Source: Fibrobacteria bacterium (GTDB lineage: Bacteria > Fibrobacterota > Fibrobacteria > UBA11236). Taken from it: 64,000 bases of DNA. Location: NCBI GenBank assembly GCA_043745805.1, contig JAYTSD010000045.1, positions 96,001 through 160,000 on the forward strand, written 5' to 3'. Numbering within the stretch: the first letter of the stretch is position 1; the number at the start of each line of letters is the position of its first letter. A program made the translations under genes and the position numbers. Below are positions 4,898 through 45,762 of this stretch, piece by piece. The notes under the pieces are model-generated. The model had not been told where the DNA came from. It searched no databases and saw only the letters and a program-made list of their open reading frames with translations.

Positions 4898-5929
4898 TTC
4901 GCGCTGTGATTTAGAATGACGCTTAAAATATTTTTTGGGAATGGTATGTCCCTTACGTAATTCTTTTTGATCTTCTATGGGTAAAGTGGCAATCCCTTTA
5001 CATTCTTCTGAACAACAACCTTGCATTTTTTCATGACAGGTTGGGCACTGAATGAACAATAAATTGCAAGCCTTATTTTTACAATTATGATGTGTGTCGC
5101 AAGGTAATTCACATTGATGGCAATTGGCAACAATGTCGTTGGAAATACGTTCAGACATGCGAAAATCGAAAACAAAATTTTTACCTTTAAATTTATTTTC
5201 TAATCCTTCGGCTTTGACTTGCCGTAAATATTCAATAATACCACCCTCCAGCTGATACACATGGGGGTAACCTTTATGTTTAAAATAGGCGCTGGCTTTT
5301 TCGCAACGAATACCGCCGGTGCAATACATCACCAAATTTTTATCATCGGTTTTGCCTTTTAAATCGGCATCAATGATATCTAAGGATTCTCGGAACGTAT
5401 CCACATCGGGTTTTAAGGCACTTTGAAAATGTCCGATTTCACTTTCATAATGATTACGCATATCAACTAATATGGTATCCGGTTTATCGATTATGGCATT
5501 AAAGTCACGTGCCTTTAAATGCATGCCAATTTGAGTGGCATCGAAAGTGGGATCGTCAATACCATCCGCTACAATTTTAGGACGAACTTTTATTTTAAGT
5601 TTCAAAAAAGATTTATTGTCATGCTCAATAGCCACATTCAAACGATTTCCTTTTAAAAAGGGAATACTATCTAAATGTTCTTTAAAGGCTTTGAAATTAT
5701 CGGCAGGTAATGAGAGTTGCGCATTAATGCCTTCGGTAGCCACATAGATGCGACCTAATACATCTAGCTTTTCCCAAACTTGATATAAATCATCGCGGAA
5801 AACTAGAGGGTCAGAGAGATTATGATACTTATAAAAAGAAATGGTAATGCGATCTTTGCCCGCAGCATCAATTAACTTTTCGCGTTCGCTGGCGCTAAGA
5901 TTATTATACTGCATCATAATGGGGAGCAA
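4853..5929 (-). CDS. trhO: Rhodanese-domain oxygen-dependent tRNA uridine(34) hydroxylase (YceA/TrhO)
   Basis: ISFYKY, GRIYVATEGINAQ, DMRNHYESEIGHF, YCTGGIRCEKAS, GKNFVFDFR, C-terminal Cys cluster. Confidence 0.9.
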   Translation of the reverse strand: MLPIMMQYNNLSASEREKLIDAAGKDRITISFYKYHNLSDPLVFRDDLYQVWEKLDVLGRIYVATEGINAQLSLPADNFKAFKEHLDSIPFLKGNRLNVAIEHDNKSFLKLKIKVRPKIVADGIDDPTFDATQIGMHLKARDFNAIIDKPDTILVDMRNHYESEIGHFQSALKPDVDTFRESLDIIDADLKGKTDDKNLVMYCTGGIRCEKASAYFKHKGYPHVYQLEGGIIEYLRQVKAEGLENKFKGKNFVFDFRMSERISNDIVANCHQCELPCDTHHNCKNKACNLLFIQCPTCHEKMQGCCSEECKGIATLPIEDQKELRKGHTIPKKYFKRHSKSQRELLMGDQIQEQSPKK

Positions 5930-5979
5930 AGTTAAAAATTAATAAGCAAAATAAAACCCTAGATCATGCCCTGAAAACG

Positions 5980-6480
5980 CTAACCTACTACGGTAATTTG
6001 GGTTTTTGCTTGACTATTAAATCTATCAATCACTTGTACCAAAATTCTAAAATTTTCTTTTAGTTGAGAAGGCATTTTCTCTTTATTAATCAGCAAAATT
6101 ATTTGATCCTTATCGCAAAATTCGTTTAAAGCCTTTTCAAGTTCGGGCCATTCAAATTCAGCATAGGTGGGGAAATTTATTTGATCGGATAAAGAGCGGA
6201 ATAGGCCATCTTTATTTAGGATACGACGAAAATCTAATTTTACTAAATTAGCATCCGACTTACTATTTAAAGACTCGTCAATTTTACTTTGATAATCTTT
6301 TTCATAACGTAAATCGGAAGCATTTTCTAGCACGGCCTCTAATTCTACTATGGCTTTTAATTCTCCCGCATGACTAATTAAGTTTAGGCCGCGGCTTTGA
6401 ATTTTACCCAATAGATCCAACAATATGCAGATATTTTCATCCGATAAGGTTATTTCTTTTTGCAAAATATTTTCTGACAA
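5980..6480 (-). CDS. Two-domain protein with C-terminal barstar-like domain
   Basis: C-terminal LDFRRILNKDGLFRSLSDQINFPTYAEFEWPELEKAL resembles barstar (..L..FP.Y.G.NWDAL.D.L); TTG start. Confidence 0.55.
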   Translation of the reverse strand: MSENILQKEITLSDENICILLDLLGKIQSRGLNLISHAGELKAIVELEAVLENASDLRYEKDYQSKIDESLNSKSDANLVKLDFRRILNKDGLFRSLSDQINFPTYAEFEWPELEKALNEFCDKDQIILLINKEKMPSQLKENFRILVQVIDRFNSQAKTQITVVG

Positions 6481-6524
6481 ATTAATTCCTCAAAGAAATA
6501 ATTGTGGGGGAGTGTGAATTTAAT

Positions 6525-7226
6525 TTAAGCCGATTTATCGTTTTCAAAAAAACGATAAACGATACCCGCCACCGCTGCACCCATTATAGGAGCAACCCAG
6601 AATAACCAAAGTTGTTGCAAAGCCCAACCGCCTACAAAAACAGCTGGACCAGTGCTGCGAGCAGGGTTAACGGAAGTATTGGTTACGGGTATACTGATTA
6701 AATGAATCAAGGTAAGCCCTAGGCCAATAGCAATAGGGGCTAGGCCTTTTGGGGCACGGACATCAGTTGCGCCTAAAATGATAATGAGAAACATAAAGGT
6801 CATAACTAATTCTGTGACTAGTCCCGAAGCAAGGTTGTAGCCTCCAGGTGAATGTTCGCCATAACCATTGGACGCAAGGCCTGCGCTCAAATCAAAACCG
6901 GCTTTGCCCGAGGCAATGAAGTATAAAGTTCCTGCTGCTGCAATGGCACCCAATACTTGGGCAATAATATAAGGCAATAAGTCAGCAGCTTTAAAGCGAC
7001 CCGCAACTGTTAATCCTACAGAAACAGCGGGATTTAAATGACATCCAGAAATATGCCCAATGGCAAATGCCATGGTTAAAACTGTGAGACCAAATGCCAG
7101 CGAAACTCCTAGCAGACCTATTCCCACACCAGGAAATGCGGCGGAGAGTACAGCGCTTCCGCAGCCGCCTAAAACTAGCCAATAGGTTCCAATAAATTCT
7201 GCTAAGCTGCGTTTAAATAAGGACAT
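6525..7226 (-). CDS. aqpZ: Aquaporin Z
   Basis: [17 protein letters not shown], two NPA motifs ([13 protein letters not shown]), [11 protein letters not shown]. Confidence 0.97.
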
Positions 7227-7418: not shown

Positions 7419-8453
7419 ATGATTCCCCAAGTAAAGTCTACAACCCAATTGGATGCTAATAAACACATTGGCGATATTTTAAATTTGGCCATAGAGTATA
7501 CGCCTTCCCATCTGGCTTTAATTATTTACGACACACAATGTGAACTCACAAAAATGATTGCCGAAGCTTATCGCTATTGCCTGCCGAATGCAAAATTTAT
7601 CCATTTCGATTCCATTGAACAGTCCATGATCATGGCCGAATTTAAAATGCTGAAGCCCTTGGATTTAGTTGTGCTTATTCAATCCACAAGTTTTCGTTTA
7701 GATGCTTTTCGTATTCGGGTAGAATTATTTCGACTCAAAATTAAAGTGATAGAACATCCGCATCTCGCGCGAATGTTGGGTATAGAGGCCGATTGGTATA
7801 TTGATTCACTTGCTTATGACGCCCAATATTATCGTGGCATTGGCCATGCACTTAAAAAAAGAATTGACGGCGCAAATAGGGCGGTCATTGATAGTGGAGG
7901 AGAGCATTTAGTTTATGCCTCTGCATTTGAGTCGGCAAAGCTCAATATAGGTGATTTTACGGGAATGGCTAATATCGGTAGTCAATTTCCCATTGGCGAA
8001 GTATTCACCGAAACCAAAAACTTTAATGCGGTAAATGGACGGGTGCGAATTTTTGCTTTTGCGGATAGTAACTTTCGCGTTAACAAACCTGAAAAACCTA
8101 TTACGCTTGTAATAGAACAGAGTAAAGTGGTCGAGGTTATTGATTCAATTGAAGAACTGGATATAGTAATAGATAAAATTCGTGCGGATGAGGATGAGGT
8201 GTGGGTGCGTGAGTTAGGTTTTGGAATGAATCGAACCTTTACTCCCGAAAAAATTGTGAGCGACATTGGAACTTATGAACGCATGTGTGGCATTCATCTT
8301 TCCCTTGGGGCCAAGCATGCTATTTATGCTAAACCTCTTTTCAATCGGAAAACGAGTAAGCATCATGTCGATGTATTTGCGGTTACCAAATCGGTTTACC
8401 TTGATGAAGAAAATGTTTTTCGCAATGGGGCTTGGGTTTTAGAAAAGGATTAA
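7419..8453 (+). CDS. Aminopeptidase T / peptidase M29-like protein
   Basis: PIGEVF, ELGFGMN, ERMCGIHLSLG, HHVDVF motifs typical of the M29-like fold. Confidence 0.6.
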   Translation: MIPQVKSTTQLDANKHIGDILNLAIEYTPSHLALIIYDTQCELTKMIAEAYRYCLPNAKFIHFDSIEQSMIMAEFKMLKPLDLVVLIQSTSFRLDAFRIRVELFRLKIKVIEHPHLARMLGIEADWYIDSLAYDAQYYRGIGHALKKRIDGANRAVIDSGGEHLVYASAFESAKLNIGDFTGMANIGSQFPIGEVFTETKNFNAVNGRVRIFAFADSNFRVNKPEKPITLVIEQSKVVEVIDSIEELDIVIDKIRADEDEVWVRELGFGMNRTFTPEKIVSDIGTYERMCGIHLSLGAKHAIYAKPLFNRKTSKHHVDVFAVTKSVYLDEENVFRNGAWVLEKD

Positions 8454-8465
8454 GTCCCTAAGGTT

Positions 8466-8876
8466 TTAGGTTACTTTATGCGGGCGAGCACGTAAGGCAC
8501 TCCAGGTTACGTCAATTTCGATTTGGGTAACCGGTCTAATACCGATTTTTAATAGCGCTTCACCGACTCTATCTCTTTTTAAATCACTTTTAATTTGACC
8601 CGTCATTTTAGGATAGCAAGCCCAAAATAAACAATCGAATTTTCCGGCAGTTTTCACATCGGCCAATAGACTATCTAATTCCACTAATTGGCTGGCAAAA
8701 ATTTGTATAAAATCATAGCGCCCATTTTTTTCACTATTAATTTTGGTGTCAAAATCAAAATCTGTGAGAATATCTAAAAACTCTTTTGGAGCATTGACGA
8801 TCAACACATTCTCTTTGCCGATAACTTTTAATTTTTTAAGTACATACTCGGAATCAATATTGACTTTGTGTTCCAT
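8466..8876 (-). CDS. Conserved hypothetical protein (DUF3052-like / YdeI-associated N-terminal domain)
   Basis: LIVNAP, FWACYPK, SDLKRD, IDVTWSALR. Confidence 0.6.
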   Translation of the reverse strand: MEHKVNIDSEYVLKKLKVIGKENVLIVNAPKEFLDILTDFDFDTKINSEKNGRYDFIQIFASQLVELDSLLADVKTAGKFDCLFWACYPKMTGQIKSDLKRDRVGEALLKIGIRPVTQIEIDVTWSALRARPHKVT

Positions 8877-8879
8877 GCT

Positions 8880-9893
8880 TTATTTTGTTCCCATTTTCAT
8901 TATTTCTCCAAATACTTCTTTAAGTATACCAGAGATATCTGAAGCAATGTTTTTGATATAACCGAAAGGGTCGCGACGAATATCTTTTTCTTCTTCGCCC
9001 ACTAAATAAAAGAGCCCGCCTAATGCTTTATCCGTAGTCCAAGTTCCTAGACTTTCGGTGACTATGGGATTATAATTTATTTGTTTCAAGGCGGTTAATT
9101 TTAGTACCGGAGCATTGATGACCAAAGTATTTGTATTCCAAGAATTTTGAAAGCCAAGCAATTCATTGTATTTGCTTAAGGCGGAATTGTAGGTTGTTCT
9201 AAAGTTACTCCAATATTTAGTCAATGGCACCAAGCGTAAAGTGGAATCAACAAGAGGTGTATAGGCATTTATTAATGGATTAAAAGTTTTACCATTCAAA
9301 TAAGCTGTAGCTGCCGTGCTGTCTGAGCTATTTAATAATGTGAGGCCATCGGTAATGGACATACCAGTAATGGCACTTTTAAAAATGGGCACTGACCGAG
9401 GTGCAGCATATTCCGCTGCGCGATTCATATACTTAATCAACGAGTCACTAATAGAGCTGAGTCCTGCGAGGTCAGTTAATAAAGTGTTGGAGCTATTCAG
9501 ATTACTTTGCAAAGAGTTTTTATCCGAGGTCCCCAAAGTAAGATTCGCAACGGTCTGCACGGTAGTTAATTGTGAGGCAAAGGGCTTGAGCATATTTCCG
9601 ACTTCTTCTGCCGCAGCTAAAGCCTGCTTCGCCTCTTCGGGAAGTAATATTTTTATTACTTTACTTGCTAAATAGCCATTGGCTTTTCCTGCAATATTTG
9701 CGCTAGAATCGATACCCACCTTTAAGGCCGTTCTTAAACCTAAAACTACTTTTTGATCCAAGGTTAAACTAGAATCCGTTCTCATACCTTTTGAGGCGGT
9801 GACGAAATCTTCCAAGGTGCATGATTCCAAAAATAAAAGGCTGCTCAAGAGGCCACCGATGATAATAAAACTGGAAAGAAATTTTTTGAACAT
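8880..9893 (-). CDS. DUF4197 family lipoprotein
   Basis: Lipobox LESC; GLRTALKVG, KILLPEE, MNRAAEYA, AATAYL, ALGGLFYLVGEEEKDIRRDP. Confidence 0.85.
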   Translation of the reverse strand: MFKKFLSSFIIIGGLLSSLLFLESCTLEDFVTASKGMRTDSSLTLDQKVVLGLRTALKVGIDSSANIAGKANGYLASKVIKILLPEEAKQALAAAEEVGNMLKPFASQLTTVQTVANLTLGTSDKNSLQSNLNSSNTLLTDLAGLSSISDSLIKYMNRAAEYAAPRSVPIFKSAITGMSITDGLTLLNSSDSTAATAYLNGKTFNPLINAYTPLVDSTLRLVPLTKYWSNFRTTYNSALSKYNELLGFQNSWNTNTLVINAPVLKLTALKQINYNPIVTESLGTWTTDKALGGLFYLVGEEEKDIRRDPFGYIKNIASDISGILKEVFGEIMKMGTK

Positions 9894-32080: not shown

Positions 32081-32932
32081 ATGAAAACAAGTATTCTTGC
32101 TGGTATTGTGCTGGCTGCAGGTATTTCTTTGGCATCAGCAACCGTGGTTACAAGTGGCGCAACTGCCGTCGACTTGGCAAATACCATTGTCGGAACAGGT
32201 ATTTCCATCTCGGGAGCAGCTTATTCTGGTTCAGCTGCACAAAACGGAACATATACTGGTTCCACGGTTGAATCTCAAGGTCAATCTCTTTTAAGCACTG
32301 GAATTGTTCTTTCCTCTGGAAGTGCAGCTACTTTAAATGGTACGTCAAATACGGTAACCAATAGCACTTTAGCAGTTAACGGAGCAGGCGATGCAAATTT
32401 AAATAGCCTTATCCCAGGTTTTAGCACTTTTGATGCCGCTACCTTAGAATTTGATTTCATCGCTGCAGGTACCGGTACGGTTACCGCTTCTTTTTGGTAT
32501 GTATTTGGTTCAGAAGAATATAATGAATATGTAAACACAAGTTTTAATGATGTATTCGGCTTCTTCTTGGACGGATCGAATGTCGCTTTAATTCCGTCCA
32601 CAACGACTCCAGTATCCATTAATAATGTGAACGCAGGTTCGAATGCTACTTATTACAATAACAATAGCCCTGGTCCATTCGCAACTGAAATGGATGGTTT
32701 CACAAAGCCATTATTTGTTACCTTTACTGTTGCCGGTGGCTCAACTCATCATATGAAATTGGCTATTGCTGATGCAGGTGATACAGTTTTGGATTCATGG
32801 GTTATGATTGGTGGCAATAGCTTTACCAATCAACCTCCAGTTGAAGCTGTACCAGAACCTACAACTCTAGCACTTTTTGCTGTAGGCTTAATCGGCTTTG
32901 CAGGAATCGCTCGTCGTCGCGGCTTAGTTTAG
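32081..32932 (+). CDS. PEP-CTERM protein with choice-of-anchor L domain
   Basis: Signal peptide; GIVLSSG, DAATLEFDF, YVFGSEEY.EY...FNDVFGF, NVALIP, LAIADAGD..LDS; VPEPTTLALFAVGLIGFAGIARRR. Confidence 0.92.
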   Translation: MKTSILAGIVLAAGISLASATVVTSGATAVDLANTIVGTGISISGAAYSGSAAQNGTYTGSTVESQGQSLLSTGIVLSSGSAATLNGTSNTVTNSTLAVNGAGDANLNSLIPGFSTFDAATLEFDFIAAGTGTVTASFWYVFGSEEYNEYVNTSFNDVFGFFLDGSNVALIPSTTTPVSINNVNAGSNATYYNNNSPGPFATEMDGFTKPLFVTFTVAGGSTHHMKLAIADAGDTVLDSWVMIGGNSFTNQPPVEAVPEPTTLALFAVGLIGFAGIARRRGLV

Positions 32933-34031: not shown

Positions 34032-34733
34032 TTAATAGTATTCGCTTAAAATCACTCGCTGGAAAATTTCGAAATATTCTTCTCCGCGCTTTTCCATATC
34101 GAGCGGTTTATTTAAAAATTCATAAAAGCGTCCTTGGCGTAAAGTTTTATGCATAAGATTATCATCACCCGCAGGATTACCCGTGATCAGCACAAATTTT
34201 AAAAAGGGTTTACTTTTGTGGATTAAATCGCAAAGTTCATTGCCGCTCATTTGTGGCATTACTTCATCAGTAATCACTAATACTACTTCGCTATTTTGCA
34301 AAATAAATTGTGCCGCTTCTTGTGGGTTTTGAAAGGTTTTTAAATTCAGGCGCTTGCCATATTTGCGTTTGAAAAGAAATAGATTATCCTCTTCATCATC
34401 TACATAAACGACCAAGGGATTATTTAAACCATGATGTATACAAGAAAAAATATGATCGGCCATTTGCCCTAAGGTTTTATAATGCCCCATATCCATGGGT
34501 GTACCGCGGTACATCTCCTGCATGGCAAACATCATGGCAATATTAATAGTGATGCCCCCAAAGCGATGTTTTAATTCCTGGTCTAAAAGGGCTATGGTTT
34601 CTTTTTGTATATGGCAATCAAGCAATGCGCATTCGCTATTGCGTAGGACTGGCTGTGGAACAAAGGCGGGATTTTCTCCAGCTAATTTGTCGAGTACGCT
34701 TAGTAAAATCTCAAAAATTCGCGGTGAACGCAT
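34032..34733 (-). CDS. Response regulator: degenerate ACP-like N-terminal domain plus C-terminal receiver domain
   Basis: REC motifs VYVDDEEDN, VITDEVMP.MSG, ITG, FLNKP; paralog of 42176..42841. Confidence 0.8.
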   Translation of the reverse strand: MRSPRIFEILLSVLDKLAGENPAFVPQPVLRNSECALLDCHIQKETIALLDQELKHRFGGITINIAMMFAMQEMYRGTPMDMGHYKTLGQMADHIFSCIHHGLNNPLVVYVDDEEDNLFLFKRKYGKRLNLKTFQNPQEAAQFILQNSEVVLVITDEVMPQMSGNELCDLIHKSKPFLKFVLITGNPAGDDNLMHKTLRQGRFYEFLNKPLDMEKRGEEYFEIFQRVILSEYY

Positions 34734-34831: not shown

Positions 34832-35803
34832 TTAAACTTGATTGCGAGGATGAAAAGACTTATGCGTTTCTCGCAAATAATCCTGATCCAAATGGGTATA
34901 AATTTGTGTGGTGCTAATATCGGTATGGCCCAGCATTTCTTGCACGGAACGTAAATCGGCACCGGCTTCAATTAAATGAGTGGCAAAAGTATGCCGAAAA
35001 GTATGGGGTGAAACGGCAGTTTTAATATCGCTAGCCAGGCAAATTTGTTGTACGATTTTCCAAGCTCCCATACGGCTTAAAGGTTTGCCGCGCCAATTAA
35101 GCAGTAAAGTATTATCGCGAGCATTAAGGCTTTGTCTTTCGCTGGCTAAATATTGTTTTAAGCTTGCCGATACTTTTTGGCCTAAAGGCACAAGTCTTTG
35201 CTTATTTCCTTTGCCTTGCACCATTACCACATCTTCATCGAAATGTAATTGATCAATTTGCAAAGTAATTGCTTCGGAAATGCGTAATCCTAATCCATAC
35301 AATAATTCAATTAAGCAAAGATTACGTGCCGGTCCAATTTTGTTTTCGCCATTATTTTGCAAGGCTTCCGGAAGTTCTGAAAGATGTGTATAAATACTTT
35401 GCATTTCCACATGGCTCAAAGAGGAGGGCTTATAACGCTGTTGCCGTGGCGCGCGCAGGCCCATAGTGGGATCTTCAGTCAATAAATTTTCTTCGATTAA
35501 ATACTGGCAATAGCTTTTAATGCTGGAAACATAACGTGCTAGGCTTGCCGCAGCAATGCCTAAATCGGTAAGACCTTGGATGAATCCTCGTAAGGTTAAA
35601 GCGGTTAAATCTTTCACTGTGGGTTTATTATTGTTTTGCGCGAGATGGCGAAATAGTAAGAGTAAGTCGCGAGTATAGGAATCCACCGTTTCGGGGCTAA
35701 GCCTTTTTTCTAATTGCAATAAGGCTTGGTAACCGCTAAGTGACGGTATTTCGGGATCCGCAGGGGAATCTTTTTCCGTTAATCCTAATCCTTGTTTCTC
35801 CAC
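34832..35803 (-). CDS. xerD: Site-specific tyrosine recombinase XerD
   Basis: EKRLSPET..SY..DL, LYGLGLRISE, GKGNKQRLVP, LSRMGAW, HTFRHTFATHL..GADLRSVQEMLGH.DISTTQIYTH. Confidence 0.88.
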   Translation of the reverse strand: MEKQGLGLTEKDSPADPEIPSLSGYQALLQLEKRLSPETVDSYTRDLLLLFRHLAQNNNKPTVKDLTALTLRGFIQGLTDLGIAAASLARYVSSIKSYCQYLIEENLLTEDPTMGLRAPRQQRYKPSSLSHVEMQSIYTHLSELPEALQNNGENKIGPARNLCLIELLYGLGLRISEAITLQIDQLHFDEDVVMVQGKGNKQRLVPLGQKVSASLKQYLASERQSLNARDNTLLLNWRGKPLSRMGAWKIVQQICLASDIKTAVSPHTFRHTFATHLIEAGADLRSVQEMLGHTDISTTQIYTHLDQDYLRETHKSFHPRNQV

Positions 35804-36899: not shown

Positions 36900-39002
36900 A
36901 TGAAAACCACGCCGAATGCAAAGTATTGCCGAACCTTGAGTAAACAATATTGTTCCTTAAGTCTGTGGATTTTTTGCTTCAGCTTATTTTTGCATACGGT
37001 TGCCGCGAATTCTTTCGCTCAAGATTCACTGAATAAAGCGGATTATTATCAGCCCACCATTCTAAAAGTTTGGGAGAAAACCATTGCAACCAATAGGGGC
37101 GTGCATGCTTGGAATAGCGATAATGATGGCCTATTAGTTTTTCAGGAATGGATAGCCTCAATGATTTTAGCACGTCATAGTTCCGAAGTCGCACAAATTA
37201 AACTGGGACGTAAATTGGAAAATTATGTGGTGGGTGGAAATATTAAACCCTTAGGATATGTGGGTACCACCTTGCCAGTTCCAGGTTTTGGCGAGGGAGA
37301 TTTTGATATGACTTTATTGAGTTGTATGACCTTGCTCGGCACCTTTGAACGCGACACTTTAATGTTAACGCATAAAACCTATGTGCATTTATTACGTCAG
37401 GTAATTTGTCTTTGGGGACAAACTCCCAAAGAAAATTTCGATATTTTTTTTCTGAGTTTCCCAGAAACAGAAAATCATTTATTCATGTCGGAAAGTATTC
37501 GCTATCTTACCAATCAAATATTGTATGAAAATCCTCGGCATTTAATTGCCATTAAACATTTGCGTGACTCCTTAACTCATGCCGGCATTGAGTTAAATAA
37601 TAATAATGGGGTAGTGCGGCGGTTACTATTAAAAAATATGCAATTGGTGCTTTCACGCGGGCTTTTTGAATTTAATGCAAAGGTTTATCAACGCTTTACT
37701 TTACATGCTTTGGATAATCTCTATAGCTTTGCTTCGGATTCAACCCTAGTGGCGGCTTCGCAAAGTGTTTTGCATTATTTAGCCACCAAATTTGCTTTCC
37801 AAAGTTTTAATGGTATTCGCTTTGGGCCTTATCGACGTAACTCGGAAAAATTTGCGGATTCCTCCTTAATTGACAGTGATGCGGCATGCAGTTTTTTTGC
37901 TATTCAAAGTGGCAAGTTTAATTGGGATAATAATTATTGGTTTGCGCATCGTTCCCATGCCGCTATGGCACTTTATTCCACGGTATTAAAATATAGAGTA
38001 CCCGATATATTATTGGATTTTATGCAAAATCGTGAAAACCCTTATTGGGCTTTATTTAGCAATGGTATTAATGTGGAGGCTAATGGTGGGCAAGCTTTGG
38101 AAAGTTACTATGGTGCGCCACATTTTTTGATGAGCGCTGGAGGTCAGTACACGGCATATGCGGGACGGAATTTTCCTACGCAGGGTTTTTGGTTAAAAAA
38201 AGCGCCTTGGGTTTATGATGTGGTAAGTCGTTCGAGTTCGGTCATTTTAGATCCGGCTATTAAGCAACCTTATGCTTTAACGGATATTCTGCATTTTAAA
38301 GGCGCACAATGGAAAGCCAATAATTTAGCTCTGCATCAAAATTTTCTGTATGGTTATGCCGAGGCTAGCCATCGTAAGGATTGGCCACAAGCTATTCCGA
38401 GTGATTGGCAACAAGATGGGGAAATTATGGATGGCGGAGGATTTGAATTTCGCTTTTATGATCAAAGCCGGCAAGGCGTATTTATAGTGCTAACGCGCTT
38501 GAAAAACCTGCCTTCATGGCGGTTTTGGGAGCGAACTTCTACGGTAAGAGGCACTATCGAAGTGGTGGATACGGCGGAAGCTCATTCCCTAGTTCTTTTT
38601 AAGGCAAAAATGCGCCAACAAAACATGCAAACATTAGGTAATCTATTTACTGCAAAACGGTTATATACCACCTACAAGGGTGTTAAATTAACGCTTAATC
38701 CAAGCTATGATAATACCCATACGGGCATTGTAAAAATACAAAGCCCACAAGATAAGGCGATTTGGAAACAAGGGTTATCTCCAGTATTCAAAAAAAGTAA
38801 TAGCTTATTGCAGGTGAATTGGATACAAGCCGATGGCTTATTAGGGCAGGAAATTGCCTCTGGAGATGGTCAAGGTAACTTACAGGTGATTAATCCGCAT
38901 TTGCAGCAAGAATTAAATATTTGCTTTAAAGAATGGTGGAATCCATGGATAGTTATGCAGGCTTGGCCGGTCCTTGAAAACAATATCAATAATGTGAAAT
39001 GA
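36900..39002 (+). CDS. Large secreted hypothetical protein, possibly alpha-toroid lyase-like
   Basis: Signal-like N-terminus; ETENH, RYLTNQ, GLFEFNAKVY..F...ALDNLY.FA, GPYRR. Confidence 0.6.
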   Translation: MKTTPNAKYCRTLSKQYCSLSLWIFCFSLFLHTVAANSFAQDSLNKADYYQPTILKVWEKTIATNRGVHAWNSDNDGLLVFQEWIASMILARHSSEVAQIKLGRKLENYVVGGNIKPLGYVGTTLPVPGFGEGDFDMTLLSCMTLLGTFERDTLMLTHKTYVHLLRQVICLWGQTPKENFDIFFLSFPETENHLFMSESIRYLTNQILYENPRHLIAIKHLRDSLTHAGIELNNNNGVVRRLLLKNMQLVLSRGLFEFNAKVYQRFTLHALDNLYSFASDSTLVAASQSVLHYLATKFAFQSFNGIRFGPYRRNSEKFADSSLIDSDAACSFFAIQSGKFNWDNNYWFAHRSHAAMALYSTVLKYRVPDILLDFMQNRENPYWALFSNGINVEANGGQALESYYGAPHFLMSAGGQYTAYAGRNFPTQGFWLKKAPWVYDVVSRSSSVILDPAIKQPYALTDILHFKGAQWKANNLALHQNFLYGYAEASHRKDWPQAIPSDWQQDGEIMDGGGFEFRFYDQSRQGVFIVLTRLKNLPSWRFWERTSTVRGTIEVVDTAEAHSLVLFKAKMRQQNMQTLGNLFTAKRLYTTYKGVKLTLNPSYDNTHTGIVKIQSPQDKAIWKQGLSPVFKKSNSLLQVNWIQADGLLGQEIASGDGQGNLQVINPHLQQELNICFKEWWNPWIVMQAWPVLENNINNVK

Positions 39003-39305: not shown

Positions 39306-40682
39306 TTAACTCTCTTCGTGAAAATCAATTTTTGCATCCGCATGCACACTGAAACTTCCCTGTCCATTGATTACGATATGTAAACCAATTTTTTGTGTTT
39401 CTAATTTTGCTTTTAAACGATATAAGCGAATTTCAAAATTTGGTTTCTTTTGTCCGGCTAAAAGATTTTGATCTTTTTTGAAACTGCGATATTCAAATTC
39501 CTTTTTGCCTTTGTGAATCAATTCAATTAAAATATTGCGTAGTATTTTTGCAGAAACCGTTTTTAAAAAAATTTTTCCATTTAAAATGAGTTGTACTTCT
39601 TGAGGTCGATAAATAAAAACAATATTCGCTTCAAGCTGACTAATTAAATTTTGATGCTTGCGCATTAATGCTCCAGCAAAAATCTTTTCATGTTGTGCCG
39701 CATCTTCGACTAAGTGCTTGAGAAATAGGCCATTTTTTAACTGGACTTTTTGATGCTTAACACAAGTCATGTATATAGGAGCGCTGTATACACACTGGGC
39801 GTGGAGCAATATGCGCTGGCGTAAGGGGCAGAAAAAATCCTTTTCCATAAGGATTACTTGCGCTGCGGGAATTTTATATTTCGCTAAGCTTAACTCATGG
39901 CTTTTTAAAAAATCAGTGAAGGCTATTTTGTGACCGTAACATTCACCGTTTATCCATAATTGTTGACCTTTAACGCGTACGGAATGATCGGGTAAAATAT
40001 TATTTATAGAACGAATATCAGATAAATATTGCAACTGTGCAAAAGGCGCCAAGCCTAAAATTTTGGGAGCTTTTAAAATTTGGGGGCCGACTACAAAATC
40101 AAAATTAAAATTAAAGGCATGGGTAAAGGTTTTGTCGGGAATATAAACTAAATAGGATTGTACTGATTTTTTTCCCTCCACCTTTTTTACGCGGCGATGA
40201 ATATGCCCTGGCAAATATTTTTCCGTACACACCGAAATCAAATCAAAAACCATATCATGTGTATCCGTGGCATTGAAGGCCTTTTGCATCAAGGGATAAA
40301 ACCAAGCTAAAATTTCTTTACCAGGAAAATAGGTAGCGGCATTATTTCGATAAAGCAGTTTTTCTATGAATTTATTTGGAGAAACCCCCTTGCTGATTAA
40401 AAAAGGTTCCAAATCATTGACCACATAATAATTCCATCGCAATGGAATTTTTCCTTCACAGTGCCAAAGAAAATGCAGCAGCTCGGCGCCAATCAATATT
40501 TTATCGGGATAAACAATAGGGTGTGCTTCCCAAAACTCTAAAATCCATTCCCGTGGAAATAATTGCAACATAGTCACATACGAGGCGCGGTGAAAATCGT
40601 GAATGGTTAAGGGATCCTGCATGAGATAGCGGGTTTGTTCAAGGGGCGCTTCGTTATCTATCAGCAGTGCTTCTTTGATCAT
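39306..40682 (-). CDS. Putative transcriptional regulator, C-terminal winged-helix-like domain (paralog 2)
   Basis: C-terminal LNGKIFLKTVSAKIL..IL...GKKEFEYR.F...NFEIRLYRL..KL....GQGSF; paralogous to the adjacent gene over its full length. Confidence 0.65.
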   Translation of the reverse strand: MIKEALLIDNEAPLEQTRYLMQDPLTIHDFHRASYVTMLQLFPREWILEFWEAHPIVYPDKILIGAELLHFLWHCEGKIPLRWNYYVVNDLEPFLISKGVSPNKFIEKLLYRNNAATYFPGKEILAWFYPLMQKAFNATDTHDMVFDLISVCTEKYLPGHIHRRVKKVEGKKSVQSYLVYIPDKTFTHAFNFNFDFVVGPQILKAPKILGLAPFAQLQYLSDIRSINNILPDHSVRVKGQQLWINGECYGHKIAFTDFLKSHELSLAKYKIPAAQVILMEKDFFCPLRQRILLHAQCVYSAPIYMTCVKHQKVQLKNGLFLKHLVEDAAQHEKIFAGALMRKHQNLISQLEANIVFIYRPQEVQLILNGKIFLKTVSAKILRNILIELIHKGKKEFEYRSFKKDQNLLAGQKKPNFEIRLYRLKAKLETQKIGLHIVINGQGSFSVHADAKIDFHEES

Positions 40683-40696
40683 AGGAGTTGCTTTCC

Positions 40697-42049
40697 TTAA
40701 CCTATTTCGCGGAAATCGATTTTCCGATCACAGATTAAAGTAAAAGTTCCGCGTCCATTTTTCACTATACTTAGGCCTAATTTTTCTTGGTCGAGTTTTT
40801 CCATTAGGCGATAAAAACGGATTTCAAAATTGGAATTTTTTTGGTGGTTGGATATTTCAAAATCGGCTTTGAACTCTTTATACTCAAATTCAGTTTTACC
40901 CTCGCGAGTATAGGCGAGAAGAATATCCTTTAAAATTTTGGCGGGGGTATTTTTTACAAAATGTTTTCCATTGAGGGATAAACTTTGATCTTGAGCATGA
41001 TAGAACGCACGTATTTTATTTTCTAATTGCTTTACTAATTCCCCATGTTTTTTTTCCAATTCACTTTTGGAAAAGGATTTTTCTAAATCGGCATCTTCAA
41101 CCAAATGTTGTAAGAAACTGATTTTTTTCTTTTGCAACTTATGATGTTGCATGCAAATCATGTATAGCGGCGCACCATAAGCGCAATTGGCATAGAGGAC
41201 AATGCGTTTGCGGAGTGGACAATAATAATCTTTGTGCAAATGAAATACTTCGGCATCGGGCGCATCAATTTTGCCTAAATCAATATCCAATTTTTTCAAT
41301 AAAGCATAAAAAGTGGTTTTTTTGCCAATCCAATCCCCTTCGACATAGCAATCCGAGCCTTTATATTCGGCCTTTCCGGTCCATAGTACATCGTCTACGG
41401 TGCGTGTATCGCAAATATATTCAACGTTATTAAAAGCAGGCAAAGAAAGAATCTTGGAACTGGATTTGAATTGTTCTCCGGCCACAAAATCGAAATTAAA
41501 TTTTACCATATTGCTAAAATTTTTATCGCTACAATAAACCAAATAAGAATGTACCACATTTTCTTTTTCAACTTTTTTGACACGGCGACTTATATGTTGC
41601 GGTAATAATTTCGAGGTAAAAATATCAATCAGTTTATAAGCCATATCCCAAATATCATAGGCATTAAATACTTTGCCCATAAGCGGATAAAACCAAGACA
41701 GTATAGTTATACCTGGGATATACGTAGCTTGATTGTTACGGAAGAGAATTTTTTTAATGAAGCTATTTCCGTAAATACCTTTGGAAATTAAAAAGGGTTC
41801 AATAGCGTCACCCGTGGTATAATCCCAAGTGACAGGGACTTTATTATTCGCTTGCCATAAATGCTTAACTAATTCATCATCCGCAATGAGGTGTGTGCCC
41901 TCTTGAATAGGATATGCAGACCAAAACTCTTCCAGCCAATCCAATGGAAACTCAGCCAGCATGGTAAGATAAACGGAGCGTTGAAAATCATTAGTGGTTT
42001 TTAGCTTTTTATAAGCATTAGTCCATTTATTAATGAGCTGTTGTCCCAA
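40697..42049 (-). CDS. Putative transcriptional regulator, C-terminal winged-helix-like domain (paralog 1)
   Basis: TTG start after AAGAGG; C-terminal DQSLSLNGKHFVKNTPAKIL..IL....GKTEFEYKE...NFEIRFYRL.EKL....GRGTF. Confidence 0.65.
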   Translation of the reverse strand: MGQQLINKWTNAYKKLKTTNDFQRSVYLTMLAEFPLDWLEEFWSAYPIQEGTHLIADDELVKHLWQANNKVPVTWDYTTGDAIEPFLISKGIYGNSFIKKILFRNNQATYIPGITILSWFYPLMGKVFNAYDIWDMAYKLIDIFTSKLLPQHISRRVKKVEKENVVHSYLVYCSDKNFSNMVKFNFDFVAGEQFKSSSKILSLPAFNNVEYICDTRTVDDVLWTGKAEYKGSDCYVEGDWIGKKTTFYALLKKLDIDLGKIDAPDAEVFHLHKDYYCPLRKRIVLYANCAYGAPLYMICMQHHKLQKKKISFLQHLVEDADLEKSFSKSELEKKHGELVKQLENKIRAFYHAQDQSLSLNGKHFVKNTPAKILKDILLAYTREGKTEFEYKEFKADFEISNHQKNSNFEIRFYRLMEKLDQEKLGLSIVKNGRGTFTLICDRKIDFREIG

Positions 42050-42175: not shown

Positions 42176-42841
42176 TTAAAACTTGGCGAAGTAAATTAAG
42201 CCTAAAACCAAATTCAAATACTCTTCACTTTTGTTTTCTAAGTCCAATGGCTTATTAATGAATTCATAAAAACGGTTGTGACGCAAGCTTTTATACAATA
42301 AATTGCTATCGTCATCGGGATTGCCGGTGATTAAAATGAATTTCAAATAAGGTTTGGTTTTATGCACTTCATCGCAAAGTTCATTACCTCCCATAAGAGG
42401 CATAACTTCATCGGTTATGACTAAAGCGACATCGGAATTAGTTCTTATAAATTCCAAGGCTTCCAATGGTTTAGTAAAAGTTTTGAGAGTTATTTTTTTG
42501 CCTAATTTGCGATTGAAAACAAAAAGATTGTCTTCTTCATCGTCGACATAAACTACGAGAGGGTTTTTATTAGTGGTAACAAAAAGTTTTTCCAAGTGCT
42601 CCAATAGTTTTGCAACGGTAAGATAGGGAAACTCGGTTGGGTTTAAATAATTTTCCAGGTTTAAACGTTTTCCCTCATATCGTTTTTCCAATTCATCTTT
42701 AATTTCAGAAAAGGCAACTTGATCCACACCAATATCTTCTAGAAAAACTTTATTCGTTTCGCATTCCAACAATGCGGGTAGTGTTGCGCCATTGTTTTTA
42801 AAAACATCATTTAATATTTCATATACTTCTTGTTTTGCCAT
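42176..42841 (-). CDS. Response regulator: serine-less ACP-like domain plus receiver domain
   Basis: ATG 42841 after GAGG; LEDIGVDQVAFSEIKDELEKRY..LTVAKLLEHL (ACP pattern, DS replaced by DQ); REC VYVDDEEDN, VITDEVMP, ITG, FINKP. Confidence 0.82.
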   Translation of the reverse strand: MAKQEVYEILNDVFKNNGATLPALLECETNKVFLEDIGVDQVAFSEIKDELEKRYEGKRLNLENYLNPTEFPYLTVAKLLEHLEKLFVTTNKNPLVVYVDDEEDNLFVFNRKLGKKITLKTFTKPLEALEFIRTNSDVALVITDEVMPLMGGNELCDEVHKTKPYLKFILITGNPDDDSNLLYKSLRHNRFYEFINKPLDLENKSEEYLNLVLGLIYFAKF

Positions 42842-42884
42842 GAGAACCCTCAATTATTGTATGCCATCAAAATTAAACCACAAT

Positions 42885-44060
42885 TTAAATCATTAAACTT
42901 TCAATTTTTAATTCCTTAATAGCTTCTGCGGTAACGATAGCCGTTTTTATAATAGCTTCACGAGTAATTTCGGCGTGAACTGAAAAACGAGCAAAACTTT
43001 TATCACGCGCTGAAGCTGGAGGAGCAAATACTGAAAATAAAATTCCTTTTTCTTTCATTTTTCCATAAAGGGCGCTAGCTGTATAGGGGCCTTTAAAAAA
43101 TACGGATACGATTTGACAATTACTTGGACCAGTGGGAATACCACGTTGATTCAACTCATCCCTTAAAAGTTGAGCCATATCCATGCAATGCTGCGCTCTT
43201 TGCGGTTCCCGTAAAATAACATTCAAAGCGGCTCTGTGACCCGCAGAGTTTGGTTCAGAAGGTGAAGAACTAAAAATAATAGAGTGACAACGAAATCTTA
43301 AAAAACGAATGGCTTGTAGGCTTGCTGCGATAAAGCCTCCATTGCCGCCAATAGCTTTGGACAAGCTAACCGTTCGAAAAGGTACTCTATCTTGTAACCC
43401 TAATGAAACGGCTAAACCACCGCCATTTTCTCCAATCATTCCAAAGCTATGGGCTTCATCTAGTACCAAGGCGCAGTTATACTTTTCACATAAAGCAATG
43501 TAGGTGGGAAGATCAGCAACTGATCCATCAGTGCTATAATAAGCATCGATGCAAACAATTCCCGTTCCATCTTTTTTGATTCTTTTTTCCAAATATTCCG
43601 GATCATTATGTTTGATTAAAACAGGTCTTCCTGAAGAAAGTTTCGCACCGGACCATAATGACGCATGCGCTTGATGATCAATGTAAATAGGCAAATCAGG
43701 TGTAGCTATTGCTTCTAATAAACCGACATTAGCGCACCAACCAGCAGTAGTTACGATTACGTCTTCGCTTTTGAGGCTTTTTTTTAATACTTCCCCAAAT
43801 TTTCCATGTTCACCGGTGTCGGCTCCAAAAACCAATGAGGCTACGCTACCTGTGCCAATATTGTTATTCGCTTCATCCTTGGCTGCTATTACCTCGGGAT
43901 GGCGAGACAAGCGCAAATAATCATTTTGATGTAATTCAATATAGGCTTTTGAATCTCCAGGTTGATCGAATGGATTCGGTTGATGGCCATCCATAAAATT
44001 CAACCAGTCCTCATAATGTTTGGTTAACCATGGCGTTGTATCTAAATCATCGGAAAGCAT
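42885..44060 (-). CDS. cqsA: CqsA/LqsA-like alpha-hydroxyketone autoinducer synthase (PLP-dependent alpha-oxoamine synthase family)
   Basis: LHQNDYLRLSRHP, GWCANVGLL, IYIDHQAHASLWSG, YSTDGS, DEAHSFG, SLSKA (PLP Lys), IIFSS: CqsA-type rather than BioF-type signatures. Confidence 0.75.
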   Translation of the reverse strand: MLSDDLDTTPWLTKHYEDWLNFMDGHQPNPFDQPGDSKAYIELHQNDYLRLSRHPEVIAAKDEANNNIGTGSVASLVFGADTGEHGKFGEVLKKSLKSEDVIVTTAGWCANVGLLEAIATPDLPIYIDHQAHASLWSGAKLSSGRPVLIKHNDPEYLEKRIKKDGTGIVCIDAYYSTDGSVADLPTYIALCEKYNCALVLDEAHSFGMIGENGGGLAVSLGLQDRVPFRTVSLSKAIGGNGGFIAASLQAIRFLRFRCHSIIFSSSPSEPNSAGHRAALNVILREPQRAQHCMDMAQLLRDELNQRGIPTGPSNCQIVSVFFKGPYTASALYGKMKEKGILFSVFAPPASARDKSFARFSVHAEITREAIIKTAIVTAEAIKELKIESLMI

Positions 44061-44148
44061 GGAACGGTCCTTTTATTATCTGTATAAATGGTTTGGATTT
44101 TGTGGTTTTTTGTGTATGTGAATGAATGTCTTGCTCAAATATGCTTCC

Positions 44149-44164
44149 GGGCCTTAATATTGCA
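44149..44164 (+). promoter_or_regulatory. Putative sigma-54 promoter for the cyclase gene
   Basis: GGGCCTTAATATTGCA: GG(44150-51)-N10-GC(44162-63). Confidence 0.4.
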
Positions 44165-44202
44165 TTTGAAGCTAGAATTTTTGGCTTTTGAGGAAAAGGT
44201 TG

Positions 44203-45762
44203 ATGCTGAGAAAATTCTTTTCGAAGGATTTTTGGAATGGCCGTTCGGAATACCACCGAATGCTTTTTAATACTGACTATTCCTTTCAAAAACGTTTTAT
44301 GATGGTACTGGTATATATAGGCGCACCAGCCAATATATTTTTTCATTACTATGAACAAGATCAAGGTTATCAAGATTCTACCATTGGACGTTATGCTATT
44401 TCTCTGCTATTAGTTACACTAGTTTTCCTACCGAAGATTATCAAGCAAAATAAATGGCAAATATCGTACTGGGAACTCACACTTTTCATTTTTTTCCCAT
44501 GTATGAACACCGCCTTCATGCTGATGAATCATGTTAATCAGTATTGGTTTTCCACCTTTATTCTGGATATGGTATTTTTGGGCATTTTTACCAAATGGTA
44601 TATGATCCCTTTCCATTACATTTTTGGTAGTGCGGCAATAACATGGTGGTACTTTCACAATACAGGATATGATGCGAAATTATTTCAGGCCAATTTAAAT
44701 GCGCATGTGGCAGCCTTTCTAGGAACATGCGTTGCATCGGGAGTCGTTTTAACTATTGAATATGTTAATAAAAAATCTACTGAAGCTAAATTAGCGCTAT
44801 CTAAAGCGGAACATGATAGGCTCAGAACCTTAGAGCTACAAAAATCAAATGAAGAATTAAAAAAACGTGAGGAAATCATTAAGGTGTATGTGCGCCCATC
44901 CTTGTATGAAGAGTTAGCGGCGGGACATGACCCTCTCAAATTTCAACCTATTATGCTGCCTAAGGCGATTATGTTTTGCGACATTCGCGACTTCACTTAT
45001 TTGACGGAAATTCTTACCCCTTACGAAAAACAAACTTTTCTCAATCAATATTTCACTTTGATGAATCATGCCATTGTCAATAATGAAGGCGAAGTAGATA
45101 AAATTGTGGGCGATTGTATTATGGGTCTTTTTCCTAATGGCCGCGCAGCCGTACATGCCGCATTGGCCATGCGTAAGGCCTTGCACACATTTAATAATAT
45201 GATGTACAACAGTGGTCGTCGAAAAATCCCTAATGGTATTGGCATAGCCAAGGGCGAAGTGATGTTAGGCAATTTCGGATCTAATGAAAAACTAGATCGC
45301 ACGGTGATTGGTGAAGCGGTGAATATAGCTTCACGCTTGGAATCTAAAACCAAAATGTATGGTGTGGAAATTGTGGTGACTCAGGATGTGGTCGATGAAA
45401 TGCAGGGCTATCCCTATATGCGTTGGATTGACAATGCTAAGGTAAAAGGTTCGAGCCGACCTTTGCAGCTTTATGAAATTTATGGACATCAACCAGATGA
45501 AGTGATTGCCTATAAAGAAAAGACTAAAGTCATATTCGAAAAGGCTTTGACTATTTATTTCAATAAAGGTTTTAAAGATGCTTTACGCATGTTTCAATCT
45601 ATGTTATCCGAGGTTCCACCGCATAAATACAAAGCGAATGCACCCATGGATAATATTCTCAGCTATTATATTGAGCATTGCCGAACTTGGGTGAATGACT
45701 CCGCAGGGGCTTGGGACTTGCGGAATAAATGGGATGGCATTCATGAGTTTAAAGAAAAGTGA
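44203..45762 (+). CDS. Membrane class III adenylate cyclase with CqsS/LqsS-like 6-TM sensor domain
   Basis: Cyclase motifs MFCDIRDFT, VDKIVGDCIM, GIGI..GEV.LG.FG, DRTVIGEAVNIASRLE; N-terminal TM region with Y....R, YW..TL...P...FMLMN....W pattern as in CqsS. Confidence 0.85.
   Translation: MLRKFFSKDFWNGRSEYHRMLFNTDYSFQKRFMMVLVYIGAPANIFFHYYEQDQGYQDSTIGRYAISLLLVTLVFLPKIIKQNKWQISYWELTLFIFFPCMNTAFMLMNHVNQYWFSTFILDMVFLGIFTKWYMIPFHYIFGSAAITWWYFHNTGYDAKLFQANLNAHVAAFLGTCVASGVVLTIEYVNKKSTEAKLALSKAEHDRLRTLELQKSNEELKKREEIIKVYVRPSLYEELAAGHDPLKFQPIMLPKAIMFCDIRDFTYLTEILTPYEKQTFLNQYFTLMNHAIVNNEGEVDKIVGDCIMGLFPNGRAAVHAALAMRKALHTFNNMMYNSGRRKIPNGIGIAKGEVMLGNFGSNEKLDRTVIGEAVNIASRLESKTKMYGVEIVVTQDVVDEMQGYPYMRWIDNAKVKGSSRPLQLYEIYGHQPDEVIAYKEKTKVIFEKALTIYFNKGFKDALRMFQSMLSEVPPHKYKANAPMDNILSYYIEHCRTWVNDSAGAWDLRNKWDGIHEFKEK

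Follow-up and report, generated by a model that had tools for sequence, protein, structure and literature searches.

Architecture of the sensor–cyclase gene

The gene analysed here occupies positions 44203..45762 on the plus strand of a 64,000-nucleotide stretch (the window) of contig JAYTSD010000045.1 from a Fibrobacteria bacterium. Its 519-residue product, P0001, joins a six-helix membrane domain to a class III cyclase domain. A sequence-only reading of the locus had proposed just this combination, a membrane sensor fused to a class III cyclase, and the six transmembrane (TM) helices, the PF00211 match and the length of the product bear it out. Coordinates are positions in the window, and residue numbers are those of P0001. 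The open reading frame (ORF) listing has one long ORF at this locus, 44188..45762 (+), which begins with TTG and comprises 524 residues. An ATG at 44203, preceded by a Shine-Dalgarno-like GAGGA stretch, yields 519 residues plus the stop codon (44203-45762, +); because homologues are 484-546 residues long and their alignments begin at about residue 10-20, this ATG is the sensible start. Full-length homologues are 40-55% identical to P0001 and, where the source is named, come mostly from metagenome-assembled genomes (MAGs) of Fibrobacteria or Fibrobacterota. The AlphaFold2 model, built with 30 homologues, has a mean predicted local distance difference test score of 86.6, with values mostly above 90 in the membrane part. 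The gene and its parts are as follows:

44203..45762 (+), six-transmembrane (6TM) sensor–adenylate cyclase gene, P0001, 519 residues (ORF, homologues, AlphaFold2 model)
44278..44772 (+), CqsS-type six-helix membrane sensor domain, residues 26-190 (family profile, hhalign)
44674..44889 (+), TM6 prolonged as a single helix into the cytosol, residues 158-229 (DSSP on the AlphaFold2 model)
44857..44949 (+), transducer or 'handle' segment ahead of the catalytic core, residues 219-249 (alignment with OaPAC begins at residue 219)
44950..45483 (+), class III cyclase catalytic domain, residues 250-427 (PF00211, OaPAC, Foldseek)
45496..45759 (+), conserved C-terminal helical domain, residues 432-519 (alignment, helices of the AlphaFold2 model, no Pfam family)

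Hydropathy and the model together place the TM helices at residues 33-53, 60-75, 84-108, 113-129, 132-154 and from 158 onward. Both ends of the membrane domain would be cytoplasmic (in/in topology), judging from the basic N-terminus and the cytosolic nature of the cyclase. According to DSSP, TM6 in the model is one unbroken helix of 72 residues that runs from the membrane towards the catalytic domain. The C-terminal domain, modelled as helices at 432-453, 457-468, 485-498 and 503-509, is strongly conserved, with many invariant columns in the family alignment, and the Pfam scan assigned it no family; it may serve for docking or regulation.

The sole Pfam family in P0001 is PF00211, the class III cyclase domain (E 4.2e-15, 56.2 bits, cut-off 21.9). 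DUF5823 gave a weak match under its cut-off (E 0.043), and the NCBIfam scan matched no family. The closest solved relatives of the cyclase are OaPAC (114 bits) and bPAC (89 bits), followed by CyaB and CyaC; the top Foldseek matches agree, with probability 1.00, and matches to the catalytic domain take up the list that Foldseek gave with the full model. The alignment with OaPAC takes in the 'handle' that precedes the catalytic core. The catalytic residues named in the sequence-only reading are all in place: D260 and D304 for the metals, K300 and T367 for adenine, N374 and R378 for the transition state. They match OaPAC one-to-one and are invariant in all 109 family members compared. The Lys/Thr pair marks class IIIb and ATP specificity in the Linder and Schultz classification. 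In the comparison with OaPAC and across the 109 members, nothing in this residue set points to an inactive or GTP-specific enzyme, and the C-terminal part of P0001 is predicted to be an active, ATP-specific adenylate cyclase of class III (IIIb-like).

Relationship of the membrane domain to CqsS

Our reference for the autoinducer sensor CqsS was a 690-residue ORF of Vibrio campbellii (locus L015, on a 2-Mb replicon). The locus was reached by a tblastn search of a plasmid collection with the synthase of the window; the ORF is convergent to cqsA (696.7 bits with NF005526), and a relative 86% identical to it bears the source name 'CAI-1 autoinducer sensor kinase/phosphatase cqsS' (P0237). In a single BLASTP comparison, residues 88-129 of P0001 matched residues 82-122 of this CqsS with 11 of 42 positions identical (E 0.025). 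This is the same segment that the sequence-only reading had likened to CqsS.

That reading assigned the membrane domain to the CqsS type. The pairwise match being too weak by itself, we turned to profiles and built a hidden Markov model (HMM) from residues 1-200 of 109 family members and searched the 4716 ORFs of at least 100 residues from the genome that carries the window, together with the ORFs of the loci compared. The model scored V. campbellii CqsS at 42.6 bits and a second Vibrio CqsS at 34.7 bits, and gave 46.4 and 44.3 bits to the CqsA-adjacent kinases of Ralstonia and Cupriavidus; the best other ORF among the 4716 reached 7.6 bits. Aligned by hhalign with a profile of 37 CqsS sequences, the family profile gave 97.5% probability over 101 columns in local mode and 98.4% (E 5.7e-14) over 183 columns, spanning all six helices, in global mode. 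In the reciprocal search, a CqsS HMM run against 5737 sequences recovered 52 of 120 family members at E<=1e-3, 35 of them at <=1e-6, the best at 53.2 bits. Profiles in both directions thus uphold the proposed assignment, and on this evidence the membrane domain of the P0001 family is homologous to that of the CqsS autoinducer sensor at the family level.

The relationship concerns the sensor module alone. True CqsS has HisKA, HATPase_c and REC domains, and the Pfam scan found none of the three in P0001, which, having no kinase or receiver output, is therefore not a CqsS orthologue. Neither Pfam nor NCBIfam has a model for the CqsS membrane domain, and CqsS itself matches HisKA, HATPase_c and REC alone; since Pfam has no model of the 6TM domain, members of the family are labelled simply as cyclases in databases. 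A search with the CqsS domain returned near-identical Vibrio kinases alone, and so could neither show nor exclude cyclase fusions among the close relatives of CqsS.

Beyond the family, a phmmer search with residues 1-200 against 1.8 billion representatives gave 32 proteins at E<=1e-3. Leaving out three family members and five fragments shorter than 140 residues, we scanned the other 24 against Pfam. Their outputs were histidine kinases (9, six of them hybrids with a receiver), cyclases (3), GGDEF (2), SpoIIE (2) and a Ser/Thr kinase (1), with seven matching no family; the CqsS profile scores several of these remote matches at 37-45 bits. A 6TM module fused to so many outputs is a portable input module, and by these matches the CqsS-type domain looks like a general input domain that has no Pfam family. 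Among these metagenomic proteins (P0121-P0148), the Ser/Thr kinase fusion has its 6TM module at the C-terminus, and some of the hybrid kinases contain PAS.

In the genome that carries the window, no other ORF among the 4716 has a CqsS-type membrane domain according to the family HMM. The genome has two class III cyclases, the second being an FHA-GAF-cyclase, and five proteins that bind cyclic nucleoside monophosphates (cNMPs) according to Pfam, all above cut-off. Parts for reading a cAMP signal are therefore present.

How CqsS holds its ligand is described in a 2026 preprint on cryo-EM structures of V. harveyi CqsS with CAI-1 (PMC13174287). There, the headgroup of CAI-1 hydrogen-bonds W33, R47 and S103, and its tail rests on F26, Y29, L83, F86 and F87 and on F158, F162 and F166 of the partner TM6. 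According to the same source, TM6 passes without a break into the DHp helix and shifts upon CAI-1 binding, and lipid-like densities sit in the CAI-1 site of apo-CqsS. W100 of this CqsS equals W104 of the V. cholerae protein, as given in a review (PMC3376566). Mapped onto P0001 through the hhalign alignment, with residue counts over the 109 family members, the positions correspond as follows:

CqsS R47: R63 in P0001; Arg in 106 of 109
CqsS S103: T118; Ser in 98 of 109, Thr in 8 of 109
CqsS W100: W115; Trp in 82 of 109, Tyr in 26 of 109
CqsS P84: P99; Pro in 107 of 109
CqsS N94: N109; Asn in 109 of 109
CqsS W33: alignment gap, with H48, Y49 and Y50 close by in P0001
CqsS L83, F86, F87: F98, M101, N102; variable in the family
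CqsS F158, F162, F166: L173, V177, V181; position 173 is Phe in 74 of 109, and the alignment of TM5-6 is of low confidence

The polar head site appears largely kept and the tail pocket not, a pattern that, on the aligned residues, argues for a related but different ligand. Since the tail pocket differs, CAI-1 itself is unlikely to be the ligand. Polar or charged residues within the membrane and in the loops (D25, Y26, R63, E91, N109 and K131) are near-invariant in the family.

The adjoining synthase and the conservation of its linkage

Four genes on the minus strand run divergently from the cyclase gene, beginning with a synthase and a receiver protein:

44061..44202 (no strand), divergent intergenic region, with a -10-like TAGAAT at 44173-44178 and GAGGA before the ATG
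42885..44060 (-), CqsA-like alpha-oxoamine synthase dependent on pyridoxal phosphate (PLP), 391 residues (NF005526, CqsA structure match, tree)
42176..42853 (-), protein with a small helical N-domain and a receiver (REC) domain, 225 residues (PF00072)
40697..42049 (-), 450-residue protein on the same strand as the synthase, no Pfam or NCBIfam family
39306..40682 (-), paralogue of the 450-residue protein, 47% identical by BLASTP, no Pfam or NCBIfam family

The best NCBIfam model for the synthase is NF005526, alpha-hydroxyketone autoinducer synthase (289.8 bits), followed by bioF (229.3 bits); true CqsA proteins score far higher with NF005526, at 696.7 bits for V. campbellii and 565.5 bits for Ralstonia. 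Among solved structures, V. cholerae CqsA comes closest to the synthase (174.9 bits), ahead of serine palmitoyltransferase (SPT, 145.5 bits). In a tree from a quick maximum-likelihood search without bootstrap (a careful search was unfinished), a Fibrobacterota CqsA-like clade and the CqsA clade (98 each) form sister groups, the joint node having 99 in the SH-like approximate likelihood ratio test (SH-aLRT); the true CqsA clade spans Vibrio, Ralstonia, Cupriavidus, Streptomyces and Tistrella. Structure match and quick tree thus place the synthase with characterised CqsA, apart from BioF, KBL and SPT. The sequence-only reading had set the receptor beside its synthase; the CqsA-like gene is indeed there, and the neighbourhood recurs in other genomes.

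A scan for related loci, one genome per species, gave 27 loci, of which 22 with full-length family members were kept and five (L042, L044-L047), matching the catalytic part alone, were left out. Apart from L021, all family loci belong to MAGs that bear the label Fibrobacteres, Fibrobacteria or Fibrobacterota. Half of the 22 loci (11) have an oxoamine-synthase-family gene and a receiver-protein gene divergently and directly upstream of the cyclase, and L024 has the pair just downstream; at least one synthase-linked copy of the cyclase occurs in 12 of 13 Fibrobacterota MAGs, counts that come from related genomes and are not independent. In the synthase-linked relatives the receiver gene comes right after the synthase. 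The type of synthase swaps among three clades while the cyclase and the receiver protein are kept: the CqsA-like type occurs in the window, L024 and L030, and also in L005 and L051; an Aminotran_1_2 type occurs in L023 and L041; and the majority of relatives have an SPT/BioF-like enzyme of a separate clade, the three that were scored giving about 340-345 bits as SPT and about 192-197 as CqsA. Of 151 genomes sampled across the phylum, 9 have full-length members of the cyclase family (E<=1e-60), with a patchy spread over families.

Two further genomes of the same class and another family (G028 and G030) carry a gene of the CqsA-like clade that converges on the gene for a 6TM-HisKA-HATPase_c-REC hybrid kinase; 47 bp separate the two in G028. 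The TM profile of the cyclase family scores the membrane domains of these kinases at 30.8 and 20.0 bits, and neither locus has a separate receiver protein. The convergent pairs are:

L049:5994-8027 (+), kinase, with 8075-9352 (-), CqsA-like gene
L048:3818-5698 (+), kinase, with 5714-6919 (-), CqsA-like gene

This Vibrio-like arrangement of synthase and kinase suggests, as far as gene order and profiles can tell, that the cyclase form arose by a swap of the output domain.

Four loci (L022, L023, L025 and L030) are tandem, with a cyclase followed by a convergent second-type receiver protein and then a second cyclase paralogue. The second cyclases differ in their pocket residues: position 102 is Gln in all three aligned, and position 57 is Lys, Thr or Ser instead of the usual Trp.

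The receiver domain of the 225-residue protein is canonical, its DD, D, T and K residues being invariant in the alignment of its relatives. Its N-domain has a weak PP-binding match (E 0.17), in which the position of the carrier Ser is not conserved; when the model of the protein was compared with solved structures by VIA-align, receiver domains alone were matched, and none for the fold of the N-domain. LqsR (rank 35, Z 16.0) is just one among many such matches. Prediction of a complex between residues 200-519 of the cyclase and the receiver protein gave a score of 0.00 and a mark of 0.32, which speaks neither way on binding. A paralogue of the receiver protein (44% identity) lies 8 kb off at 34032-34733 (-), beside an XerC/D-type integrase gene (34832-35803) and sugar-metabolism genes.

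In most related loci, a -10-like TA(G/A)AAT, often following CC.CC(C/T)G, is present some tens of bases ahead of the cyclase start. The comparison (L022-L043) was made by eye, with estimated start codons and roughly delimited regions; the recurrence of the hexamer suggests a conserved promoter of the cyclase's own. We also looked by eye for a cAMP-CRP-type palindrome in the divergent intergenic region of the window, found a lone TGTGA half-site and dropped the idea.

A candidate signal receptor with cAMP as its response

Because a sensor related to CqsS is joined here to a cAMP-making enzyme and adjoins a gene for a candidate signal synthase, we consider P0001 to be probably a natural receptor for a cell-to-cell signal that answers with cAMP, a CqsS-type receptor fused to a cyclase; we would put the probability of this reading at roughly 60%. 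P0001 would act as a homodimeric membrane receptor-enzyme. The divergently encoded CqsA-like PLP enzyme would make a hydrophobic signal of the alpha-amino- or alpha-hydroxy-ketone type, which, by analogy with CAI-1 in CqsS, would bind the 6TM dimer between the protomers on the outer-leaflet side, with its head on R63 of TM2 and on T118 and W115 of TM4. Binding would shift TM6, and the motion would pass down the TM6-cytosolic helix and the 'handle' to the catalytic dimer, so that cAMP synthesis would rise or fall, presumably in step with cell density. The cNMP-binding proteins of the genome would then read the cAMP.

On a more tentative note, some Fibrobacterota may possess a modular kind of quorum sensing in which the receptor writes straight into cAMP and not into a phosphorelay, often with two paralogous receptors whose pockets differ. 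Interchangeable synthases of three clades would in that case reflect diversification of the signal, and the receiver protein may replace the synthase-binding role that Rec/RecL plays in the CqsS-CqsA complex. We hold this broader scheme to be possible, with the odds somewhat against it.

Several observations weigh against the signal-receptor reading. The pairwise BLASTP match to CqsS is local, covers 42 residues and is marginal taken alone, and P0001 itself scores just 13.5 bits (E 0.012) with the CqsS HMM; P0001 is a divergent member, and the case for its homology to CqsS is made by its family. W33, essential for CAI-1 sensing in CqsS, aligns to a gap, and the tail-pocket residues are not kept (F86 is replaced by M, F87 by N, F158 by L, F162 by V and F166 by V). 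Across 29 cyclases, pocket residues compared with synthase type gave no clear pattern. The score of the synthase with NF005526 is below the cut-off of 428. No synthase was found within the flanks examined in 10 of the 22 family loci, two of which (L029 and L037) have short upstream flanks, and among four distant members one has a CqsA-like and receiver pair about 3 kb off, with none within about 7 kb in the other three. The SPT/BioF-like or third-type enzyme beside most relatives fits lipid building as well as signal synthesis.

This last point leads to the principal rival, in which the cyclase is a cell-autonomous lipid sensor: the synthase and a carrier-like REC partner would make a membrane amino-lipid or a lipid of the long-chain-base type, and the 6TM cyclase would monitor the cell's own membrane in homeostatic feedback. 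Such a role would suit the better scores of most relatives' enzymes as SPT/BioF and their separate clade, the weak acyl-carrier-like match of the N-domain in the receiver partner, and the lipid-like densities reported in the CAI-1 site of apo-CqsS (PMC13174287). It sits less well with the enzymes of the window, L024, L030, L005 and L051, which belong to the sister clade of CqsA, with the G028 and G030 loci, which pair that clade with a CqsS-type hybrid kinase in the convergent order of Vibrio, or with the carrier Ser, which is not conserved. We regard a lipid-sensing role as considerably less probable than signal reception. Rather unlikely, in our view, is a receptor for some hydrophobic cue that has no connection with the adjoining enzyme, the 6TM domain being one of a broad superfamily and the linkage a matter of co-regulation alone. 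The many outputs joined to the module in the 24 remote matches, the 10 loci with no nearby synthase and the failure of the pocket residues to track synthase type would all agree with an unrelated cue. Against it stands the divergent synthase–cyclase arrangement, kept in 12 of 13 MAGs even though the synthase has been replaced by members of three clades; this is hard to explain unless there is a functional tie to the product of the oxoamine synthase. It is very improbable that the six helices simply hold and dimerise the cyclase and that their likeness to CqsS reflects convergence of short hydrophobic helices. Passive anchoring was for long the default view of cyclase membrane anchors, as described in PMC4821796, but D25, Y26, R63, E91, N109 and K131 are near-invariant, some of them matching ligand contacts of CqsS, and TM proteins of the same genome score at most 7.6 bits with the family profile, against 42.6 for CqsS.

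The preferred reading, a CqsS-type receptor with a cyclase output, can be set against several known systems. P0001 shares with CqsS six short TM helices, profile homology over all six, a TM6 prolonged as a cytosolic helix, a conserved Arg (R47/R63), a Ser or Thr (S103/T118), a Trp (W100/W115) and Pro and Asn motifs, and a gene beside a CqsA-type synthase. It differs in its output, a class III adenylate cyclase where CqsS has DHp-CA-RecL-Rec, in its tail pocket, and in the orientation of synthase and receptor genes, divergent in the window and convergent in Vibrio.

That a CqsS-type 6TM domain can drive a class III cyclase through the helix after TM6 is known from laboratory chimeras, CqsS-Rv1625c and CqsS-AC2 (PMC4821796; Seth et al., bioRxiv 10.1101/694877). 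According to Beltz et al. (2016, PMC4821796), the chimeras answer to CAI-1, which, as a review has it (PMC12414865), had a stimulatory effect on CqsS-Rv1625c and an inhibitory one on CqsS-AC2; such receptor–cyclase coupling is thus proven able to work. The sequence-only reading had cited these engineered chimeras, and in the literature searched (PMC4821796, PMC12414865) they are the sole precedent found. They are laboratory constructs with a catalytic domain of class IIIa, whereas the window has a natural gene with a IIIb-like (Lys/Thr) domain, a helical linker of about 40 residues, an additional conserved C-terminal domain and a candidate synthase of its own. In the 2016 eLife survey (PMC4821796), the CqsS cluster consists of 56 6TM modules of sensory histidine kinases, and the matches of cyclase anchors to it are weak and local; the 2025 review (PMC12414865) speaks of 'synthetic cyclases'.

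With Rv1625c/Cya and the mammalian membrane adenylyl cyclases, P0001 has in common a 6TM domain, a helical transducer and a class III catalytic domain, and Foldseek aligned its whole model with 7yzk over 438 columns (E 8e-9, root-mean-square deviation 16.6). The anchors of these enzymes match CqsS weakly and locally in the survey (PMC4821796), whereas the family of P0001 is strongly linked to CqsS and P0001 has a candidate source of ligand encoded beside it. OaPAC and bPAC offer the closest solved catalytic domains, with the handle and identical catalytic residues, and differ in having a soluble BLUF sensor, not a membrane receptor. The Legionella lqsA-lqsR-(hdeD)-lqsS cluster, as described in the review PMC3376566, resembles the window in that the synthase gene is directly followed by one for a receiver-domain protein, with a 6TM sensor nearby. 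The receiver protein of the window has its REC domain at the C-terminus together with a helical N-domain, and its sensor is a cyclase, not a kinase.

Our search of the full-text literature, which left subscription journals and supplements outside its scope, found engineered chimeras and no natural CqsS–cyclase fusion, so that an earlier mention is possible; nor did it find a report of CqsA or alpha-hydroxyketone signalling in Fibrobacterota. In P0001, then, sensor module and output are each of a known kind; of their natural combination we found no description, and a candidate source of ligand comes with it. Whether the six-helix anchors of adenylate cyclases, be these bacterial or among the nine human isoforms, serve as receptors has been debated for decades, and the strongest argument so far has been the artificial CqsS–cyclase chimera. 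A natural cyclase whose anchor is related to a ligand-binding quorum receptor, and which has a candidate synthase adjoining, offers a tractable system. If the signal-receptor reading is true, alpha-hydroxyketone-type signalling would extend to a phylum for which we found no report of it, and quorum sensing would be wired straight to a second messenger. Should the modular cAMP scheme hold as well, P0001 would provide the first case of a membrane adenylate cyclase for whose 6TM 'anchor' a natural ligand can be predicted.

The remaining genes near the cyclase include several proteins of no assigned family. An ESM Atlas search with the 450-residue neighbour gave no match of at least 0.9; a third paralogue of this protein is encoded on contig C1, and in L021, L023 and L039 there are homologues close to the module. 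Further upstream in the window are genes for a 283-residue protein with a PEP-CTERM sorting motif, 32081-32932 (+), and a 700-residue protein with a hydrophobic N-terminus and no Pfam or NCBIfam family above threshold, 36900-39002 (+).

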